A stretch of 36,510 bases of DNA from an uncultured Bdellovibrionales bacterium (lineage in GTDB: Bacteria > Patescibacteriota > Minisyncoccia > Moranbacterales > UBA1568), in assembly GCA_964459475.1 (NCBI GenBank), contig CAYWLN010000003.1, positions 1-36,510 on the forward strand, in the 5' to 3' direction. The notes under the pieces are model-generated. The model was not told where the DNA came from. It saw only the letters and a list, made by a program, of their open reading frames with translations, and searched no databases. Below, piece by piece: positions 5,767 through 36,510 of the stretch. Within the stretch, counting starts at the first letter, position 1. Each line of letters begins with the position of its first letter. A program made the translations under genes and the position numbers.

Positions 5767-6102
5767 CTATTTAAGTTCGAGGAGGAGTTTCTCTACTTTG
5801 TCAGCTTCTTGCTCTGTGGTGTCGATACTAAATGACAGCTTGGGCATGGGACGCATGTAGAGCTTCGCGTAAAGTTTCTTTTGGATGCCACTAATTTCCT
5901 TTTTGAGTGTTTCGGTCACGTAGTTGGTCTCACTCTCAGGAAAAACACTGACAAACATGCGAGTATAGCGGAGATCCTTGGAGGTGTCAACCCTGGGGAT
6001 AGTAATGATGACTCCAGGCTTGAGGGAGAGTTCGCGCTCCATGATTTCACCGAGAAGCTTTCTCAATTGCTCATTTACTTTGGTAATACGGAGAGTGGAC
6101 AT
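5767..6102 (-). CDS. rbfA: ribosome-binding factor A
   Basis: 111 aa. The pattern RITKVNEQLRKLLGEIM...PRVDTSKDLRYTRMFVSVF is typical of RbfA. Confidence 0.88.
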   Translation of the reverse strand: MSTLRITKVNEQLRKLLGEIMERELSLKPGVIITIPRVDTSKDLRYTRMFVSVFPESETNYVTETLKKEISGIQKKLYAKLYMRPMPKLSFSIDTTEQEADKVEKLLLELK

Positions 6103-6139
6103 ATGGGATAATCGTGTATAAGTGTATAAAATGGCTTGT

Positions 6140-6214
6140 TGGTGCCCTCGGCAGGAGTTGAACCTACGTTTACTCGTTAGGAGTGAGTCGTTCTATCCAC
6201 TGAACTACGAGGGC
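6140..6214 (-). tRNA. tRNA-Arg (CCT), CCA encoded
   Basis: Minus-strand sequence GCCCTCG TA GTTC AGTGGATA GAAC G ACTCA CTCCTAA CGAGT AAAC GTAGG TTCAACT CCTGC CGAGGGC A CCA. There is one A-C mismatch at 31:39. Confidence 0.8.
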
Positions 6215-6284
6215 AATTGATCGATGATTTCTTGAGATAGCTCCCTGCCCGCCGGCAGGCAGGTATCCATTGAGCTACAGAGGC
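6215..6284 (-). other. truncated tRNA 5' copy B with a 20-nt GC hairpin inserted in the D-loop
   Basis: Minus strand: GCCTCTG TA GCTC AATGGATA [CCTGCC-TGCCGGCG-GGCAGG] GAGC, then non-tRNA sequence. The hairpin is at 6244-6263. There is no pairing anticodon stem, T arm or 3' acceptor. Confidence 0.6.
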
Positions 6285-6346
6285 ATAATTTATGAGTGAG
6301 TGTTCCCTGTCTACCGGCAGGCAGGTATCCACTGAACTACGAGGGC
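6285..6346 (-). other. truncated tRNA 5' copy A with a 20-nt GC-rich insertion in the D-loop
   Basis: Minus strand: GCCCTCG TA GTTC AGTGGATA [CCTGCCTGCCGGTAGACAGG] GAAC ACTCA CTCATAA, which then runs directly into copy B. The first 21 nt are identical to the intact tRNA-Arg. The anticodon-loop-like CTCATAA is at 6290-6296. The 3' half is absent. Confidence 0.6.
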
Positions 6347-6403
6347 TTGAGATGGCAAGAATGTACTGTACCACGGTATCTCAATAATATCAATGGAGCC
6401 GGT

Positions 6404-6435
6404 CAAAGTAAAACAAAACTCCTCTTACGAGGAGT
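6404..6435 (-). terminator. rho-independent terminator downstream of tRNA-Ala
   Basis: Minus strand: ACTCCTC-GTAA-GAGGAGT (6418-6435) followed by TTTTGTTTTACTTT. Confidence 0.65.
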
Positions 6436-6459
6436 GTTTATGCTACGTGAGTCGAAGTG

Positions 6460-6532
6460 TGGACCTGAGGAGACTCGAACTCCTGACCTCCTCCATGCCA
6501 TGGAGGCGCTCTACCAGCTAAGCTACAGGCCC
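6460..6532 (-). tRNA. tRNA-Ala (GGC), CCA not encoded
   Basis: Minus strand: GGGCCTG TA GCTT AGCTGGTA GAGC G CCTCC ATGGCAT GGAGG AGGTC AGGAG TTCGAGT CTCCT CAGGTCC A. The G3:U70 Ala identity pair is present. Confidence 0.9.
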
Positions 6533-6594
6533 AAATGCTACTTCCCTATCATACTGATTTCTGGCCATTCGTCAATGTGAGGGAGTAGGGAGAG

Positions 6595-8370
6595 ATGCGA
6601 GTCTGGAGAAAATCCGCTATACTGAAGGCGAAATACTTCCTGACTGCTATGATTCGTATACTGGAACGTCTGCAACTGTCGAATATCTTTCTTCTTGGTT
6701 TCTTTTTGGTTCTCCCACTTTCACTCCGGCACACTTTTGTCGCCTGGAGTCCACTGGGGACGAGTGGCTTCAATGAGTATACTGACGTCTCAGTTTTTCT
6801 ATCGGACCTCGTGCTCCTGTGCTTTATTTTGCTAAAAATATTAGAAAACAAAAGAACATATTTGTCAATAAGTTGGTGGAGGGAAATGTTCCACGTGGAA
6901 CAATGGAAGCTAGCCGTTCTTTCGCCACTCCCCTTTTTGCTGTGGAGCCTCATTTCAACTTTGTGGTCAGAAAACCAATCGTTGGCTATTTATGCCTCAA
7001 TAAAGCTCATTGAAGGTTATTTGCTGTATCTGTTTTTATTGCTAACAATTGTTCCACGTGGAACAATTGAAGCGAGTGATAATAAAAGTTCCACGTGGAA
7101 CATGGCGGATTCGTTAAGTGTTGATCACAAATTGTTCCACGTGGAACAATCACAATCCAATATTTCTAAAGTTGTAAAAAATGTTCCACGTGGAACAATT
7201 GCTTTCTTGAGTCAGATTGTTTCAAAATGTTCCACGTGGAACATTCGTGGATACGTCATTCAAACACTCATTCTATCGGCATCTGCCCAGTCACTCGTTG
7301 CTTTGTATCAGTTTATGGCTCAAAAAAGCCTTGGACTAGCTTTCCTAGGTGAATCACAACTAGGGGCCCAGTGGCCAGGAATAGCCAAGATTCTTATGGA
7401 CGGAGAAGCAATCGTACGACCCTATGGCTTATTTCCGCACCCTAACGTTTTGGCTGGATTTTTAGGATTCGCGATTATTTTGGTAATATTGGAACCGATT
7501 CTTGGATCAGGAAAATTGTTCCACGTGGAACAATCACGGCTACTCTACCGTATCGTTCTTGGTACTCTCAGTTTTGTCTTTCTTGTCACTTTCTCAAAAG
7601 GAGCTATTCTAAGCCTCATTCTTGTTCTGTTTTATATATTTTGGCAAATGTTCCACGTGGAACAAATTATTCACGGTTCAGTAGTTAATACGATAACAAA
7701 TGTTCCACGTGGAACAATAGCGTATTTCAAACGCGTGTACTCGAATTGTTCCACGTGGAACATACATCAATACTGGTTGAAATTGTTCCACGTGGAACAT
7801 TTCTTTGTGGGAACTGTTTTTGTACTGGTTGGCGTTGTACTAGCGCTTGTGGTGCGTTCGCTTGATTGGTATTATTTCCTGTACCAACCTCTGACGGAGC
7901 GATGGCTCTACGTGCAAGGCTTTTTCAGAATGATTATTGATTCATTTTGGCTAGGTATCGGTCTTGGACAGTCTGTTTTCCTCATGCAACACTTTATTGA
8001 AAGAATCCTGTTTGACTGGGAGTTTCAGCCAATACATAACCTTTTTCTGTTAATATGGGCAGAGGTTGGACTAGTTGGCCTGGTCTTATTCGGCTATATT
8101 TGTTCCACGTGGAACAAAACTACTCAAATTCCAAAAATGTTCCACGTGGAACAATGCGTCCAGAAATTTGGTCGCAATCAAAACAATGTTCCACGTGGAA
8201 CAATTTATACTGTCGTCATTGAATCGATCTTTTCTCGAGGAATCTTACTCTATATCTTAATAACGAGCTTATTCGATCATTACTATTGGGATATTCAGCA
8301 GGGGCAACTCCTGTTCTGGACTGTCTGTGCTGTGGCAATTTCACTTAGACTCAGAGTATTGACAAAATAG
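6595..8370 (+). CDS. O-antigen ligase / Wzy_C-family polytopic membrane protein carrying 14 in-frame palindrome insertions
   Basis: Uninterrupted 591-aa ORF in AT-rich DNA, with a GGGAG-rich RBS upstream. Many hydrophobic helices. The family-typical segment is PIHNLFLLIWAEVGLVGLVLF (HN..L....E.G..G), together with LFPHPNVLAGFLGF. The hydrophilic stretches between helices contain the repeat-encoded peptides FHVEQ, VPRGT and STWN. An alternative start at 6649 is possible. Confidence 0.75.
   Translation: MRVWRKSAILKAKYFLTAMIRILERLQLSNIFLLGFFLVLPLSLRHTFVAWSPLGTSGFNEYTDVSVFLSDLVLLCFILLKILENKRTYLSISWWREMFHVEQWKLAVLSPLPFLLWSLISTLWSENQSLAIYASIKLIEGYLLYLFLLLTIVPRGTIEASDNKSSTWNMADSLSVDHKLFHVEQSQSNISKVVKNVPRGTIAFLSQIVSKCSTWNIRGYVIQTLILSASAQSLVALYQFMAQKSLGLAFLGESQLGAQWPGIAKILMDGEAIVRPYGLFPHPNVLAGFLGFAIILVILEPILGSGKLFHVEQSRLLYRIVLGTLSFVFLVTFSKGAILSLILVLFYIFWQMFHVEQIIHGSVVNTITNVPRGTIAYFKRVYSNCSTWNIHQYWLKLFHVEHFFVGTVFVLVGVVLALVVRSLDWYYFLYQPLTERWLYVQGFFRMIIDSFWLGIGLGQSVFLMQHFIERILFDWEFQPIHNLFLLIWAEVGLVGLVLFGYICSTWNKTTQIPKMFHVEQCVQKFGRNQNNVPRGTIYTVVIESIFSRGILLYILITSLFDHYYWDIQQGQLLFWTVCAVAISLRLRVLTK
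6887..6902. repeat. parS-like 16-bp perfect palindrome TGTTCCACGTGGAACA (copy 1)
   Basis: Exact palindrome read directly from the sequence. It is translated as MFHVEQ. Confidence 0.9.
7050..7243. repeat. cluster of 5 parS-like palindromes (copies 2-6)
   Basis: Core starts are 7050, 7087 (14-nt core GTTCCACGTGGAAC at 7088-7101), 7133, 7182 and 7228. The spacings are 37, 46, 49 and 46 bp, with unique AT-rich spacers. Confidence 0.9.
7517..7532. repeat. parS-like palindrome (copy 7)
   Basis: Exact TGTTCCACGTGGAACA, translated as LFHVEQ. Confidence 0.9.
7649..7799. repeat. cluster of 4 parS-like palindromes (copies 8-11)
   Basis: Core starts are 7649, 7701, 7747 and 7784. The spacings are 52, 46 and 37 bp. 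Confidence 0.9.
8101..8202. repeat. cluster of 3 parS-like palindromes (copies 12-14)
   Basis: Core starts are 8101, 8138 and 8187. The spacings are 37 and 49 bp. Confidence 0.9.
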
Positions 8371-8387
8371 TATTTTCGTGTTATAGA
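8359..8387 (+). promoter_or_regulatory. candidate promoter TTGACA-N17-TATAGA
   Basis: -35 at 8359-8364 (inside the last codons of the ligase-like ORF) and -10 at 8382-8387. It would produce a leader of about 260 nt before the ATG at 8658. Confidence 0.35.
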
Positions 8388-8583
8388 ATTTTATCGTACG
8401 ATTGAAGAGATACACCTCGAAATTGCGTCGAGAAATGCAACTTGACCCATGAGCGCACGAGGATATCAGTGAAGATATTTGGTGAAGCAAATTCAATACT
8501 GCGGTCATGAAATATATATGTCGTCATGAGTGGTGAGTACGATTTGTTTGATGAGGCACACACTTTTGCTGTTCGTAAAAAAA

Positions 8584-8601
8584 TGATATACTTTGAGTGA
8601 C
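8584..8601 (+). promoter_or_regulatory. extended -10 element TGaTATACT plus conserved downstream TTGAGTGAC
   Basis: TGATATACTTTGAGTGAC matches 27177-27194 at 17 of 18 positions. It lies 57 nt upstream of the ATG at 8658. Confidence 0.4.
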
Positions 8602-8657
8602 GTGAGAGTAATGAAGCCTCACATCGAGGACACAGGCGCTTAGAATAAAAACACAAT

Positions 8658-9668
8658 ATGTCGTTGGTACGTAAAGGCATTTCACAAGTAGAAATGAGAA
8701 CGTCGTTGTTTCTCTTTTTTGGTCTCCTCATTTTGAGTGTGACTTTTTTTGTATCGGCCGATGATACGATGACAGACAAAAATATTTTTCAGGATTCTGA
8801 TCAGGATGGTTTGAGCAATGACGAAGAAGCGCTCTATAAAACGGATCCACTTGATAAGGATAGTGATGACGATGGTTATACTGATGGTGTTGAGGTAGAG
8901 AGCGGGTATGATCCACTGAAGCCCGCTCCGGGTGACAGAGTTGTGTCAAATACTACAGTTCAAGCTAGCTCAACTCTGGGTGCTTCAGATTCACTGGGTG
9001 AAGTTGATGACGCAAATTTAACGACAGCAGTTTCGGAAGAGATCGCAGGGCTCATACAGCAGGGTAATTCTGCCGAGGGCGAAACAATTACGTTGGATGC
9101 AATTACGGAATCTGTCCAGGGTGTTATGGATAAATCTGATCAGGAAATTGTTCTGCCAGAAGTAGATATAGATTCTATTAATATCAAATCAGTCTCAAAG
9201 AAATTGAAAGGCGAGCGTCGTACAGAGGCTGAGAAGGAAGATATAGTTGAATACTTAACAGTGCTTGCTTATATCTTGGCCAACAATTCTCCGCAAAGTT
9301 TTAAGTCCGAGAAGGACCTTGGCTCTGTACTTACTTCAGCTGCGAGTGGAGCCCTTGGAGCAGTGACGACTGGCAATATGAAGTACCTGGAAGAGTTATC
9401 ATCGAAAAGTAATAAAATTCTATCGGAAATTGATACTATTGAAGTTCCTGAAGCCATGTTAGATGTTCATGTAAAGGCTATTAAAATGGTGAAGTATTCC
9501 TCTCAACTGAAGGATGAGGTAAAGCTTGATAATATTGATGATCCGATTGGTCAGATTTCTTCACTTGGAAAGGTACAGGGTTTCTTGTCAGCCTCTGTAG
9601 ATTTTTCATCTGAAATTTATGCGAAATTACAGACGTATAAAATTGATACTATTCCTTTGAGTCTCTGA
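8658..9668 (+). CDS. secreted or membrane-anchored protein with thrombospondin-type-3-like Asp-rich calcium-binding repeats
   Basis: Hydrophobic N-terminus (LFLFFGLLILSVTFFVSA), with an alternative ATG at 8694. Repeats DSDQDGLSNDEE and DKDSDDDGYTDGVE are present. The remainder is not recognised. Confidence 0.65.
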   Translation: MSLVRKGISQVEMRTSLFLFFGLLILSVTFFVSADDTMTDKNIFQDSDQDGLSNDEEALYKTDPLDKDSDDDGYTDGVEVESGYDPLKPAPGDRVVSNTTVQASSTLGASDSLGEVDDANLTTAVSEEIAGLIQQGNSAEGETITLDAITESVQGVMDKSDQEIVLPEVDIDSINIKSVSKKLKGERRTEAEKEDIVEYLTVLAYILANNSPQSFKSEKDLGSVLTSAASGALGAVTTGNMKYLEELSSKSNKILSEIDTIEVPEAMLDVHVKAIKMVKYSSQLKDEVKLDNIDDPIGQISSLGKVQGFLSASVDFSSEIYAKLQTYKIDTIPLSL

Positions 9669-9673
9669 AGTGT

Positions 9674-10735
9674 ATGTTTAGTCTACGCCACTACATAGCA
9701 AAGAAATTTTTTACGGTACTATTTGTTACTGTGTCAATTATTGGCCCGTCTCTTTTCCCGTTACGGGCTCATGCACAGGTTTGGGGTACGGATGATATTT
9801 TTGGTGATTTGGTAAAGCAAATGCTCGAGGTGGTTAAATCCCAAATTGATGGAGCAATTCTTGCTACTATAAAAGTAGCTGCAATTTCTGCCATGAATAG
9901 CAAAGTAGCTCAGATGATAGGGGGTACTTCACTTGGTGACCAACTCTTTATCTCAGATTGGAATGATTACTTGTATCAAAAGCCAGCCGAGCAAACGAAG
10001 CTTATCATGAACGATTTCTTTACACTGACTACTCGTGGCAAGTACGCTTCGGCCAACTATGTGGGAGTAGGGGATGTTACCGGGAGTGTTTCTGGGAACT
10101 ATCCAGCGTACCTGGTAGCACAAGCACAGCAGTCGATTGGCGATGAGAGCGCCGGACAAGCCGGCTTGGAATATAACCTGGATAGTTATTGCGCCAGTCC
10201 AGATGTCTTGTTTCAGGAGGGTGACTTCAGATGTTTTAATGCTATGATTTCGAATCCAGCTAATAATCCATTTGGGTATACCCTTTCCGCAACAGCATAC
10301 TACGCAAGAACGATGAATCAGAAGATTGAGCAGGCCAGGACGGAGGCCCAGTCATCAGGATATATCGGTAAAAAGCAAAATGGAATGACTATCGCGCCAG
10401 CGGCTACCATTGAAAATATGATGTCTGATGTTCAGAACATTGGAAACAATGTGATTGCTGCTGCGGAGAATCCGGGAATACTTTCAGGTATTGTCCAAGC
10501 AGCCATGAATCGGATTATTTCTAACATGATTCAAAAGGGCATTGGTAATGTTCAGGCAAAAATTCAACGTGAAATTAAGCGCGTTGATAATCAAGTGGTT
10601 GGCGCTTTGGATAAGGCTAATAAGCAGCTTGGTCCCGCAGCCAAATTTACCAAGGAGTGGAGTCAAAAATCTAATGTGGTAAAACCGTACACGGCACCAC
10701 CACCAGCGGCTTGTAGTGTTGAGCAAGGTTGTTAA
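9674..10735 (+). CDS. secreted hypothetical protein
   Basis: Signal peptide ending in LRAHAQ. The start is 5 nt after the preceding stop, consistent with an operon. The C-terminus is Pro- and Cys-rich (PPPAACSVEQGC). No family was recognised. Confidence 0.6.
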   Translation: MFSLRHYIAKKFFTVLFVTVSIIGPSLFPLRAHAQVWGTDDIFGDLVKQMLEVVKSQIDGAILATIKVAAISAMNSKVAQMIGGTSLGDQLFISDWNDYLYQKPAEQTKLIMNDFFTLTTRGKYASANYVGVGDVTGSVSGNYPAYLVAQAQQSIGDESAGQAGLEYNLDSYCASPDVLFQEGDFRCFNAMISNPANNPFGYTLSATAYYARTMNQKIEQARTEAQSSGYIGKKQNGMTIAPAATIENMMSDVQNIGNNVIAAAENPGILSGIVQAAMNRIISNMIQKGIGNVQAKIQREIKRVDNQVVGALDKANKQLGPAAKFTKEWSQKSNVVKPYTAPPPAACSVEQGC

Positions 10736-10742
10736 AATAAAA

Positions 10743-10770
10743 GACTCGGAACAATCCGAGTCTTTTTCTT
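10743..10770. terminator. bidirectional rho-independent terminator
   Basis: GACTCGGA-acaa-TCCGAGTC with TTTTTCTTT on the plus side and TTTTATTTT on the minus side. It lies between the plus-strand CDS and the minus-strand tRNA-Val. Confidence 0.75.
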
Positions 10771-10774
10771 TGGG

Positions 10775-10848
10775 TGGGTGTATCTGGATTCGAACCAGAG
10801 ACCTCTACAATGTCAATGTAGCGCTCTAACCAACTGAGCTATACACCC
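10775..10848 (-). tRNA. tRNA-Val (GAC)
   Basis: Minus strand: GGGTGTA TA GCTC AGTTGGTTA GAGC G CTACA TTGACAT TGTAG AGGTC TCTGG TTCGAAT CCAGA TACACCC A. Confidence 0.9.
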
Positions 10849-11705
10849 GAAATTTCTGTAATCTCTTTTTTTAAGATGGCAGGAAGTGTTGTTTCAAGTG
10901 GATCCTGAGGTGTCGCCAACTTTTGAAAAAATAGGAACCAAACTGTTTGGCGTACTATTTCATAGAAAGCCAGTGCAACAAAGCTTCCGACCAGCATGGA
11001 GGTATCTGCCATACTTAGGAAGAGAGCATGAGAAAGAGCAACAATACCTAGCATAACCAGATTCAGTGAAAAAGTAAAGAGGAGAGCTCCCCACAGAAAG
11101 AAGAGAAAGAATTGTACTGAGAGGGATGTGTTTCTTTGAAAAAGTGCTACGCTCGCCTCGAGGGCCGATTTGAAGCGGATACCTGGAGTAAGGAGGAAGT
11201 AAAAAAAGACAAATTCCCGAAGAATAAATATCACAAGAGAAATAGGGAGTATGACAACAAGGGTGAGCCAGTGGAGAACCGGAGGAATTGCACCGAGAGT
11301 CATGAACGCCATGAGAAGAGGGAGAGCCAGTACGAAGCCAACGAGGAAGATAAAGAGGAGCAAACTCAATTCAATCAAGAGGCCTCGAACGATAGCTTGG
11401 CGCAGTGTGCGGCGTGAAATTGAGGGAGTGTCTTTTCTCGAAGAGACTCGGTGGAGGAGGAGAATCAAACATGACTTACCAATGAGCGAGCATACAAAGG
11501 TGATGATGAGAAAGAGAGAGGTCTCTCGGAAGTGGTTGGTTATATATGAGAGGAGCTCGCTTGATTGGGAAGGGGCATCAGCGAGGTAGTACGTCTGAGC
11601 GAGGATGGGGAGGGCGAGAATAGCTCCTCCTATCCAAAGCTGGCGCCGTCTCAGGGAGAGGCGCCAGCTATCGGAAAGGATGTCGACAAAAGAAAAGGAT
11701 GTCAT
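10839..11705 (-). CDS. polytopic membrane protein, hypothetical
   Basis: 288 aa with about 7 hydrophobic helices. The last three codons and the stop overlap the 5' acceptor strand of tRNA-Val by 10 nt. Confidence 0.6.
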   Translation of the reverse strand: MTSFSFVDILSDSWRLSLRRRQLWIGGAILALPILAQTYYLADAPSQSSELLSYITNHFRETSLFLIITFVCSLIGKSCLILLLHRVSSRKDTPSISRRTLRQAIVRGLLIELSLLLFIFLVGFVLALPLLMAFMTLGAIPPVLHWLTLVVILPISLVIFILREFVFFYFLLTPGIRFKSALEASVALFQRNTSLSVQFFLFFLWGALLFTFSLNLVMLGIVALSHALFLSMADTSMLVGSFVALAFYEIVRQTVWFLFFQKLATPQDPLETTLPAILKKEITEISGV

Positions 11706-30534: not shown

Positions 30535-30891
30535 ATGAAAATTTCCTCCTACAGGGATCTCGTTGTCTGGCAAAAGTCAATGGATTTGGTAGTTTCCGTG
30601 TATCAACTTACGGAAGTGTTTCCGAAAGAGGACGTATTTGGACTTACGTCACAAATGCGAAGGGCTGCTGTTTCCCTCCCATCGAATATTGCTGAAGGGC
30701 GGTACCGTGGAACACGAAAGGATTTTGCGCATTTTCTAAGAATCGCGTTTGCTTCTGGGGCAGAGCTAGAAACACAACTAGAAATTTCACGTAGACTTTC
30801 AAGAATACCATTGATTGAGTACGAACGAATGAGTAATCAACTCGGCGAAGTTATGAAAATGCTGAATGTAATGATAAGTAAACTCTCATGA
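30535..30891 (+). CDS. four-helix-bundle protein (23S rRNA intervening-sequence protein / Avd-like family)
   Basis: 118 aa. SYRDLVVWQKSMDLVVSVYQLT..FPKE..FGLTSQMRRAAVS.PSNIAEG is characteristic of the family. Its stop overlaps the rsmA ATG (ATGA). Confidence 0.88.
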   Translation: MKISSYRDLVVWQKSMDLVVSVYQLTEVFPKEDVFGLTSQMRRAAVSLPSNIAEGRYRGTRKDFAHFLRIAFASGAELETQLEISRRLSRIPLIEYERMSNQLGEVMKMLNVMISKLS

Positions 30892-35849: not shown

Positions 35850-35879
35850 TAAAAAAGAAGTCCTAGGACTTCTTTTTTC
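35850..35879. terminator. bidirectional terminator (perfect palindrome)
   Basis: AAAAAAGAAGTCCTAGGACTTCTTTTTT lies between the convergent helicase and recombinase genes and overlaps the recombinase stop codon. Confidence 0.7.
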
Positions 35880-36510
35880 TTTTCGCGTGAAATGATTGGT
35901 GGACTTCTTTGAGGCGTTCGTTGGTGACGTGGGTGTAGATCTGGGTCGTCGTGATAGAAGAATGACCGAGCATGGCCTGGACGCTTCTGATGTCAGCACC
36001 ATTAGCAAGGAGGTCAGTAGCAAAGGAGTTGTGAGAGACAAAGCCGTCAGTAATAAGATTCTCAGTCTCAGCCACTGCAAAGTCATAGACGGGAAAGTGA
36101 CCAGAGAGGGTATCGAGTGAGGTGACACGAAGCCATTTGAATTGGTTTTTTCCTGCAAGACGTCGAAGTAAGTTGAGTCGTTCATCTTTGAAACCTATGC
36201 GCTTCAAGCGATTATAAAAGAGAAGAAGAGTATTTTTGGTAGGTACTATTTTGCCACTAGTATAGCGAGATGGATATCGCAGGGTCTGTTGATCAGCGCG
36301 CTTACTGTAGATAGAATATCCGTTTTCTTTGGCCTTACGTACGAGATCGGCGAGCATAGCTCCGGCTGGAATCTTTTCACCGACGTAATCATGTTCGATA
36401 GCAAAGCTTTTCAGTGTAGGAACAAGCCGGCGGAAGCTTTCCTGGTCTGGTTTACATAAAATTTGTAGGATATACATCGTATGGTCAATGGGGTTTGTGC
36501 TGAGTGGTAG
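35863..36510 (-). CDS. XerC/XerD-family tyrosine recombinase interrupted by an intein (5' end beyond the window)
   Basis: The last 54 aa, [34 protein letters not shown], form the box II / catalytic Tyr region. The frame stays open to position 36510. Confidence 0.8.
36028..36510 (-). other. intein, C-terminal portion (at least 161 aa, partial)
   Basis: It ends in [21 protein letters not shown] (blocks F and G) and is followed immediately by the +1 nucleophile Ser (codon 36025-36027) of the extein SFATDLL. Confidence 0.75.

Follow-up and report, generated by a model that had tools for sequence, protein, structure and literature searches.

A probable parS centromere array written in frame into a WaaL/Wzy_C-type membrane protein gene of a Moranbacteria-like CPR lineage

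The stretch of DNA analysed here (the window: 36,510 nucleotides, contig CAYWLN010000003.1 of assembly GCA_964459475.1, deposited as an uncultured Bdellovibrionales bacterium) carries on its forward strand, at 6595..8370, a single open reading frame (ORF) for a predicted membrane protein of the WaaL/Wzy_C type, 591 aa long, and inside this ORF lie 14 exact copies of a palindrome, GTTCCACGTGGAAC. A scan of the whole window placed all copies within 6888-8201, against a chance expectation of 0.08, and found no further copy in the rest of the 36.5 kb even with two mismatches allowed. The full 16-mer TGTTCCACGTGGAACA is present at 13 of the 14 sites, the exception being the site at 7088, where position -1 is A and not T (AGTTCCACGTGGAACA); the flanks of the sites are A/T-rich. 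All three forward frames are used—frame 2, read as FHVE, by six sites, frame 0, read as VPRGT, by four, and frame 1, read as STWN, by the remaining four. The palindrome contains no stop codon in any frame, and its symmetry gives the same three reading frames on both strands. The features are listed below with the coordinates of the 16-mer, the start of GTTCCACGTGGAAC in parentheses, and the position of each site relative to the predicted transmembrane (TM) helices; the sites carry no strand.

6595..8370, + strand, ORF of the 591-aa WaaL/Wzy_C-type membrane protein with 12 predicted TM helices, host of the array (Pfam, AlphaFold, Foldseek, homologues)
6887..6902 (6888), candidate parS 1 (TGTTCCACGTGGAACA), frame 2, FHVE, cytoplasmic loop TM2-3
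7050..7065 (7051), candidate parS 2, frame 0, VPRGT, cytoplasmic end of TM4 / loop 4-5
7087..7102 (7088), candidate parS 3 (AGTTCCACGTGGAACA; -1 = A), frame 1, STWN, loop 4-5
7133..7148 (7134), candidate parS 4, frame 2, FHVE, loop 4-5
7182..7197 (7183), candidate parS 5, frame 0, VPRGT, loop 4-5
7228..7243 (7229), candidate parS 6, frame 1, STWN, loop 4-5
7517..7532 (7518), candidate parS 7, frame 2, FHVE, cytoplasmic loop 6-7
7649..7664 (7650), candidate parS 8, frame 2, FHVE, cytoplasmic end of TM8 / loop 8-9
7701..7716 (7702), candidate parS 9, frame 0, VPRGT, loop 8-9
7747..7762 (7748), candidate parS 10, frame 1, STWN, loop 8-9
7784..7799 (7785), candidate parS 11, frame 2, FHVE, loop 8-9 / start of TM9
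7804..8091, + strand, Wzy_C (PF04932) core, aa 404-499, comprising TM9, the large periplasmic loop and TM10, free of parS (Pfam)
8101..8116 (8102), candidate parS 12, frame 1, STWN, cytoplasmic end of TM10
8138..8153 (8139), candidate parS 13, frame 2, FHVE, loop 10-11
8187..8202 (8188), candidate parS 14, frame 0, VPRGT, loop 10-11

Profile searches and a predicted structure indicate that the host ORF encodes a real, intact protein of the WaaL/Wzy_C fold. Pfam Wzy_C (PF04932) matches aa 404-499 with 33.1 bits, narrowly above the gathering threshold of 31.7, and a precomputed PF04932 match is present in most homologues; an NCBIfam search gave no match, nor did a PDB sequence search with the family profile, the kinship with WaaL being visible only by fold comparison. 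The AlphaFold model, computed from an alignment of 25 homologues, reached a pTM of 0.75 and has 12 TM helices, and Foldseek against the PDB returned a sole significant match, WaaL 7tpg_B (E 1.4e-4, probability 1.00, target-normalised TM-score 0.58). With the WaaL/Wzy_C superfamily (PF04932; 7TPG) the protein shares the 12-TM fold, the large conserved periplasmic loop after TM9, and the cytoplasmic termini, whereas it differs in length—591 aa as opposed to 403 aa in WaaL, with nearly all of the surplus in the parS-bearing cytoplasmic loops. To our knowledge, CPR (Candidate Phyla Radiation) cells lack lipopolysaccharide. Across 25 homologues that are 37-68% identical to the window protein, 42 alignment columns are invariant; these lie outside the sites and cluster in the periplasmic loops (FNEY, HPN, ER, GxGxGQ, QPxH, DHYxWD). 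R275, H282, R436, and H481, candidates for the catalytic periplasmic Arg/His residues of the superfamily, are invariant in the 25 homologues.

When helices are counted from the conserved periplasmic loop, all 14 sites map to five cytoplasmic loops or to the cytoplasmic ends of helices, and the positive-inside rule is concordant with this topology (29 K+R among 203 residues predicted inside, 7 among 138 predicted outside). The segments of the model with low confidence (pLDDT)—156-212, 307-313, 354-374, 396-399, and 513-536—are the palindrome-bearing stretches, and the site-bearing repeat blocks are hydrophilic and lie between helices. An earlier reading made from the letters alone (hereafter the sequence-only reading) had described one 591-aa ORF covering all 14 palindromes, a six/four/four split of FHVE, VPRGT, and STWN over the three forward frames, and a palindrome free of stops in every frame; the ORF and the counts are reproduced exactly, and translation agrees on the last point. 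The same reading took the protein for a genuine Wzy_C/O-antigen-ligase-like protein, which the Pfam match, the 12-TM fold, and the structural match to WaaL support, and the repeat blocks for hydrophilic loops between hydrophobic segments, with which low pLDDT and helix counting accord; the topology check that it proposed put the repeats in cytoplasmic loops or helix ends, by helix counting and the positive-inside rule. Its description of the DNA as AT-rich and therefore stop-prone was overstated, as the host gene is moderately AT-rich, with a GC content of 41-46% versus ~51% in the remaining window.

The palindrome corresponds to a published binding site. TGTTCCACGTGGAACA is the listed chromosomal parS of P. 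aeruginosa and P. putida; M. xanthus has a site that deviates at one of its ends, and TGTTNCACGTGAAACA is given as the general consensus (PMC7022226, PMC4368675). The sites of the window match the inverted-repeat consensus (TGTTNCACGTGAAACA / TGTTCCACGTGGAACA), 13 being exactly TGTTCCACGTGGAACA and one AGTTCCACGTGGAACA; the family contains both canonical forms of parS, namely GTTCCACGTGGAAC and GTTTCACGTGAAAC. A scan of metagenomes for three closely spaced copies of the palindrome returned at least 120 stretches. Among the 120 matches listed, six belong to the membrane-protein family described here; of the 114 others, 62 share their fragment with parA or parB (42 among the 70 fragments of 3 kb or more), with the nearest site at a median of 146 bp from parA/parB. 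Tight clusters of this palindrome behave as centromeres in nature, and the sequence-only reading's identification of it as a centromere site is borne out both by the published parS sequence and by this company of parA/parB.

Relatives of the host gene were sought in one genome per species with peptide patterns independent of the palindrome (FNEY.., WQFQPIHN). Of the 195 relatives recovered, the analysis kept to the best 79 loci, and counts out of 79 refer to these; they are labelled as Moraniibacteriota, Parcubacteria, or Patescibacteria metagenome-assembled genomes, many being third-party annotation (TPA) entries under 'uncultured Bdellovibrionales', a label that we judge to be wrong. Exact sites are present in the orthologous gene at 72 of 79 loci, with up to 18 per gene, and the other seven loci have T/A variants. 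Outside the ORF, no exact copy was found in ~1.2 Mb of flanks of the 79 loci; three apparent flank copies (L030, L074) fall in N-terminal extensions of the same open frame. Frameshifts or stops in orthologues, which the sequence-only reading had named as a sign of a decaying pseudogene, were looked for, and the match lies within a single, intact open frame in 76 of the 79 species-level orthologues. The sites occupy recurrent alignment slots, each with its own frame, that are common to species only ~30% identical, which marks them as ancient fixtures and not recent insertions. An exception to the cytoplasmic placement is found in 25 species, which have an NV[S/P]RGT slot in the periplasmic loop after TM9. 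An origin in phages or plasmids was considered and rejected, as IMG/VR viral contigs have pairs or triplets of the site only, none of them in this gene family.

In a more distant relative (L072, 280-3708), GTTTCACGTGAAAC stands in frame within ispD (3235) as well as at the end of an IS200/RAYT-like ORF (2444), and a second repeat family (CPPKFFxEKxWR, THRSAPT) is translated in frame within the same membrane protein.

Comparisons of codons, regions, and site variants in this family reveal selection at two levels, that of the DNA word and that of the reading frame. FHVE is written as TTCCACGTGGAA in 204 of 218 family cases, VPRGT as GTTCCACGTGGAACA in 228 of 229, and STWN as TCCACGTGGAAC in 153 of 159, where the family's own codon usage would predict less than 1.5% for each codon combination; since one DNA word with frozen codons yields three unrelated peptides, it is not the peptides that are selected. 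In comparisons with six other species, the sites reach a nucleotide identity of 94-100%, as opposed to 50-72% for the protein core and 45-60% for the loop spacers, whose amino-acid identity is 21-40%. One species has switched wholesale: in L017 (10001-11935), all 14 sites are GTTTCACGTGAAAC, the other canonical parS form, and they stand in frames 0 (VSRET) and 2 (FHVK) only, leaving empty the frame-1 slots used in the window, because GTTTCACGTGAAAC reads TGA in frame 1. The same holds for GAAAC-type sites across the whole family (20 in frame 2, 14 in frame 0, none in frame 1). Family-wide, single mismatches are restricted to the symmetric positions 4/11 and 7/8 of the 14-mer and are similarly numerous in both half-sites once the TGA constraint is allowed for, a half-site symmetry that fits recognition of the duplex by a dimer better than an RNA hairpin. 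DNA-level selection and reading-frame selection act jointly on the same bases, as is directly visible in these comparisons, and the dual selection suggested by the sequence-only reading is upheld by the frozen codons, the switch in L017, and the region-wise identities. The frames of neighbouring sites are also staggered: spacings of up to 80 bp between adjacent sites are multiples of 3 in only 6 of 260 pairs in the family, and among within-loop neighbour pairs compared by slot, 0 of 16 use a common frame, the usual step being +1.

When a site-free 100-aa core was used to query 1.84 billion representative proteins exhaustively, the same family was recovered, with 611 relatives. Site-encoded peptides are found in every full-length match of the first 90 ranks; site-free relatives begin at rank 91 and are shorter proteins. 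Their periplasmic loops have the lengths seen in the window protein (loop 5-6, 40-41 aa and 40 aa; loop 9-10, 57-60 aa and 60 aa), whereas their cytoplasmic loops are much shorter, with 0-11 aa versus 61 aa in loop 4-5 and usually ~11 aa versus 46 aa in loop 8-9; the alignment with orthologues proposed in the sequence-only reading thus did turn up relatives without the insertions. Some site-free relatives (P0352, P0314, P0304) retain decayed relics of site peptides (NVSRRT, NVSYGT, CFTWN, VPCGT, IVSHGT), indicating that at least some of them lost their sites secondarily. From these alignments, the cytoplasmic loops appear to be old expansions that exist largely to carry sites. They probably grow via internal duplication of blocks, not by invasion of a mobile element, because L017 repeats an identical three-site block of ~50 aa in two different cytoplasmic loops. 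The shared block of L017, taken by itself, points to block duplication or gene conversion between loops.

The position of the array on the chromosome was read from skew and DnaA boxes inside 20-kb loci. Among the 40 loci with long flanks on both sides, the cumulative GC skew is V-shaped in 13 and an inverted V in none, where about one V is expected at random. In the loci where both features are readable (L051, L046, L071), DnaA boxes cluster at the skew minimum or no more than a few hundred bp from it, with seven boxes at -6.4 kb in L051 and a cluster at -8.1 kb in L046; four loci (L071, L074, L075, L041) have three to four DnaA boxes no more than 300 bp upstream of the gene, and dnaA itself lies 2-2.6 kb upstream of the gene in L031 and L178. 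These signals suggest that the array is origin-proximal in many species, as expected for parS.

DnaA-box-like 9-mers (TTATCCACA, at most one mismatch) are also 2.3-fold denser inside the gene than in the flanks (0.80/kb and 0.34/kb), with 5-7 per gene in L051 (10315-11092), L022 (10918-11059), L046 (10315-11281), and L033 (10265-11125). In related species they overlie conserved protein motifs, and we treat them as unproven.

We consider it probable, at roughly 75%, that the 14 palindromes form the parS array of the chromosome and that this array is embedded in frame in a conserved and functional WaaL/Wzy_C-type gene of a lineage of ultra-small, Moranbacteria-like CPR bacteria. The sites would be the loading points of ParB dimers, with ParB driving ParA-dependent segregation and the loading of SMC; they would use the codons of five cytoplasmic loops that are disordered and otherwise nearly unconstrained, and the protein would tolerate whichever peptide the fixed DNA dictates in a given frame (FHVE, VPRGT, or STWN). 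A ParB that binds the sites would presumably be encoded in these genomes. Searches by tblastn used Spo0J, Soj, and DnaA queries, which were validated by matches in L086 and in 62 metagenome loci; over the 79 loci and the window, their only match was dnaA in L031, and weak Soj matches at a relaxed E-value proved to be formate-tetrahydrofolate ligase.

Several observations weigh against a parS array. Within 10 kb, neither parA nor parB occurs in the window, in the 79 genome loci, or in the six metagenome loci of the family, although clusters of the same palindrome in other lineages usually adjoin parAB, and a consensus-ParB search of a 5.8-billion-protein set returned ParBs of the Firmicutes type only. 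The window itself shows no cluster of DnaA boxes and no more of them than expected by chance, and its GC skew is merely flat or negative in the first 3 kb. The regularity of slots and frames is partly aided by the aligner, which pairs identical peptides (the position of the slots relative to the helices is constant), and the site counts across species are phylogenetically non-independent. Finally, every site would form a hairpin in RNA, with a folding energy between -7 and -12 kcal/mol (z-scores from -3 to -4.5), and several sites with their T-rich flanks score as weakly terminator-like, mostly on the antisense strand.

These last two observations would be explained if the palindromes acted in RNA, as hairpins in the mRNA or an antisense transcript that tune translation, stability, or termination, with the match to parS being incidental; the concerted C>T/G>A switch in L017 keeps base pairing as well. 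We think this quite improbable, given that coincidence is a very unlikely source of an exact 16/16 match to parS in its two canonical forms, that no Rfam family matches, and that variants in frames 0 and 2 are about equally frequent at position 4 (C>T, a tolerated U-G pair, ~10) and position 11 (G>A, a C-A mismatch, 7). The lack of parAB genes nearby speaks for a different dimeric binder—a Noc-like or ParB-derived tether of nucleoid or membrane, or a gene regulator—serving nucleoid organisation or gene control: none of the 85 family loci has parAB within 10 kb, and the array sits inside a transcribed gene, where a bound protein could act as a roadblock. This alternative is unlikely, if less so than a role in RNA, for both forms of the site are canonical parS, the same clusters adjoin parAB in other lineages, the array appears to lie near the origin in many relatives, and a regulatory system with 14 operators inside coding sequence would be strangely built.

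A selfish palindromic element of the Rickettsia or REP/MITE type (repetitive extragenic palindrome/miniature inverted-repeat transposable element), inserted in frame and tolerated, would account for stop-free copies that lie in loops in three frames, for loops longer than in site-free relatives, and for the different in-frame repeat family that L072 carries in the same protein beside an IS200/RAYT-like ORF. It is largely refuted by the size and spread of the unit: conservation is limited to the 16-bp site with its A/T-rich flanks, and there is no element of ~100-150 bp; the spacers are unconserved, so no larger element exists; and exact copies are absent from the rest of the window and, outside the ORF, from the flanks of all 79 genomes, while slots and frames are common to species ~30% identical. 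The sequence-only reading's analogy with Rickettsia palindromic elements fails for the same reasons (16-bp units, one gene, shared slots at such low identity). Stop-free palindromes do open long spurious frames in non-coding parS arrays, for example in L190, and the frame in the window might in principle be a pseudogene or a spurious frame kept open in this way, or the repeated peptides might themselves be selected. We regard this as refuted, since 76 of 79 species have the match in one uninterrupted frame, 42 residues are invariant outside the sites, the WaaL-type fold is confident, and the site-free core alone finds 611 relatives; selection on the peptides is contradicted by the frozen codons with which one DNA word writes three unrelated sequences.

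If the palindromes are a parS array, the coding context could help to maintain it. Slippage deletion between repeats that share a frame would leave the protein intact, so the loss of a site would be neutral, whereas deletion between out-of-frame repeats would shift the frame and be purged, and the coding context would thereby stabilise the array; neighbouring sites may be kept out of frame for this reason. More tentatively, and with considerable doubt on our part, the embedding may be adaptive and not a frozen accident, by either or both of two routes. Staggered reading frames could lock a dense centromere array in place within a genome that is tiny and prone to recombination. Alternatively or in addition, co-transcriptional and co-translational insertion of the 12-helix protein (transertion) could couple the ParB-parS/origin complex to the membrane, replacing the polar anchor proteins that these minimal cells lack.

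Chromosomal ParABS systems have parS clusters near oriC, with ~22 parS sites in M. xanthus, and parS sites of B. subtilis lie within genes such as spo0J. The array shares with such centromeres the identical 16-bp sequence, clustered copies, the same tolerated T/A variant positions, and, in many relatives, probable proximity to the origin, and single parS sites in coding sequence are already known from them. It departs from them in that 5-18 sites are packed into one ~1.8-kb ORF, in three frames and at loop positions conserved across the lineage, and in having no parAB within 10 kb in 85 loci. Dense centromere arrays beside parA, such as F sopC and three from metagenome contigs (L190, L136, L219), have a comparably high density and spacings of 37-50 bp. 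The three metagenomic arrays lie outside any recognised gene, L190 being a regular tandem, and their spacings include multiples of 3, which arrays of the window type avoid (6 of 260); in the latter, moreover, conserved transmembrane segments interrupt the array. L190 (12272-13965) holds 22 sites at a regular ~44-bp period beside parA, with dnaA ~3 kb away, and L136 (377-2643) and L219 (2212-3750) hold 18 and 15 sites, both beside parA. Rickettsia palindromic elements are mobile, ~100-150 bp long, and dispersed through many genes, and we know of no DNA function for them. Like these and REP/MITE elements, the sites are palindromic DNA translated in frame in tolerant regions of proteins; unlike Rickettsia elements, they are ancient 16-bp units restricted to one gene, and their sequence is that of a known protein-binding site.

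The remainder of the window is a common set of chromosomal housekeeping genes, with rbfA, a DHH phosphoesterase, UDG, tRNAs, ftsH, tilS, gmk, S1, gyrA, PNPase, ksgA, and uvrD/pcrA; parA, parB, and dnaA are absent from it. A stretch of lower GC (6000-11000, 0.39-0.46 versus ~0.51 elsewhere) covers the parS gene and two downstream envelope genes, one for a TSP3-repeat protein and one for a secreted protein of 353 aa, conserved as a neighbour in ~30 species. The conserved unannotated neighbours at 9674-10735 and 10839-11705 were considered as DNA binders and rejected, being a secreted protein and a membrane protein. At 30535-30891 (+), a 118-aa ORF matches 23S_rRNA_IVP (E 1.2e-36) and is bAvd-like below the Pfam cut-off; the bAvd-like four-helix family is often tied to diversity-generating retroelements, and no reverse transcriptase adjoins this ORF. 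The last ORF (35863-36510, -) is the C-terminal part of a tyrosine recombinase of the Xer/phage-integrase type; an intein that contains a LAGLIDADG homing endonuclease domain splits the recombinase, whose full gene is found in L114 (6460-8709). Following the edge genes of the window outward gained only ~1.7 kb on the left side and, on the right, an intein-bearing recombinase.

We found no paper linking parS or ParB with CPR, Patescibacteria, Parcubacteria, Moranbacteria, or O-antigen ligase, and no description of a centromere array inside a gene of this kind. ParB-parS centromeres rank among the most thoroughly studied cis-elements of bacteria, and single parS sites in genes were known before; what is distinct here is a whole array in one ORF. 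If the sites are parS as proposed, this would be an unusually clean natural case of dual coding, with up to 18 centromere sites confined to one ORF, in three frames, throughout a deep lineage. The peptides FHVE, VPRGT, and STWN would then be annotation artefacts of a DNA function, not to be taken as protein motifs, and the array would provide a first concrete clue to the way in which CPR bacteria organise the segregation of their chromosomes.

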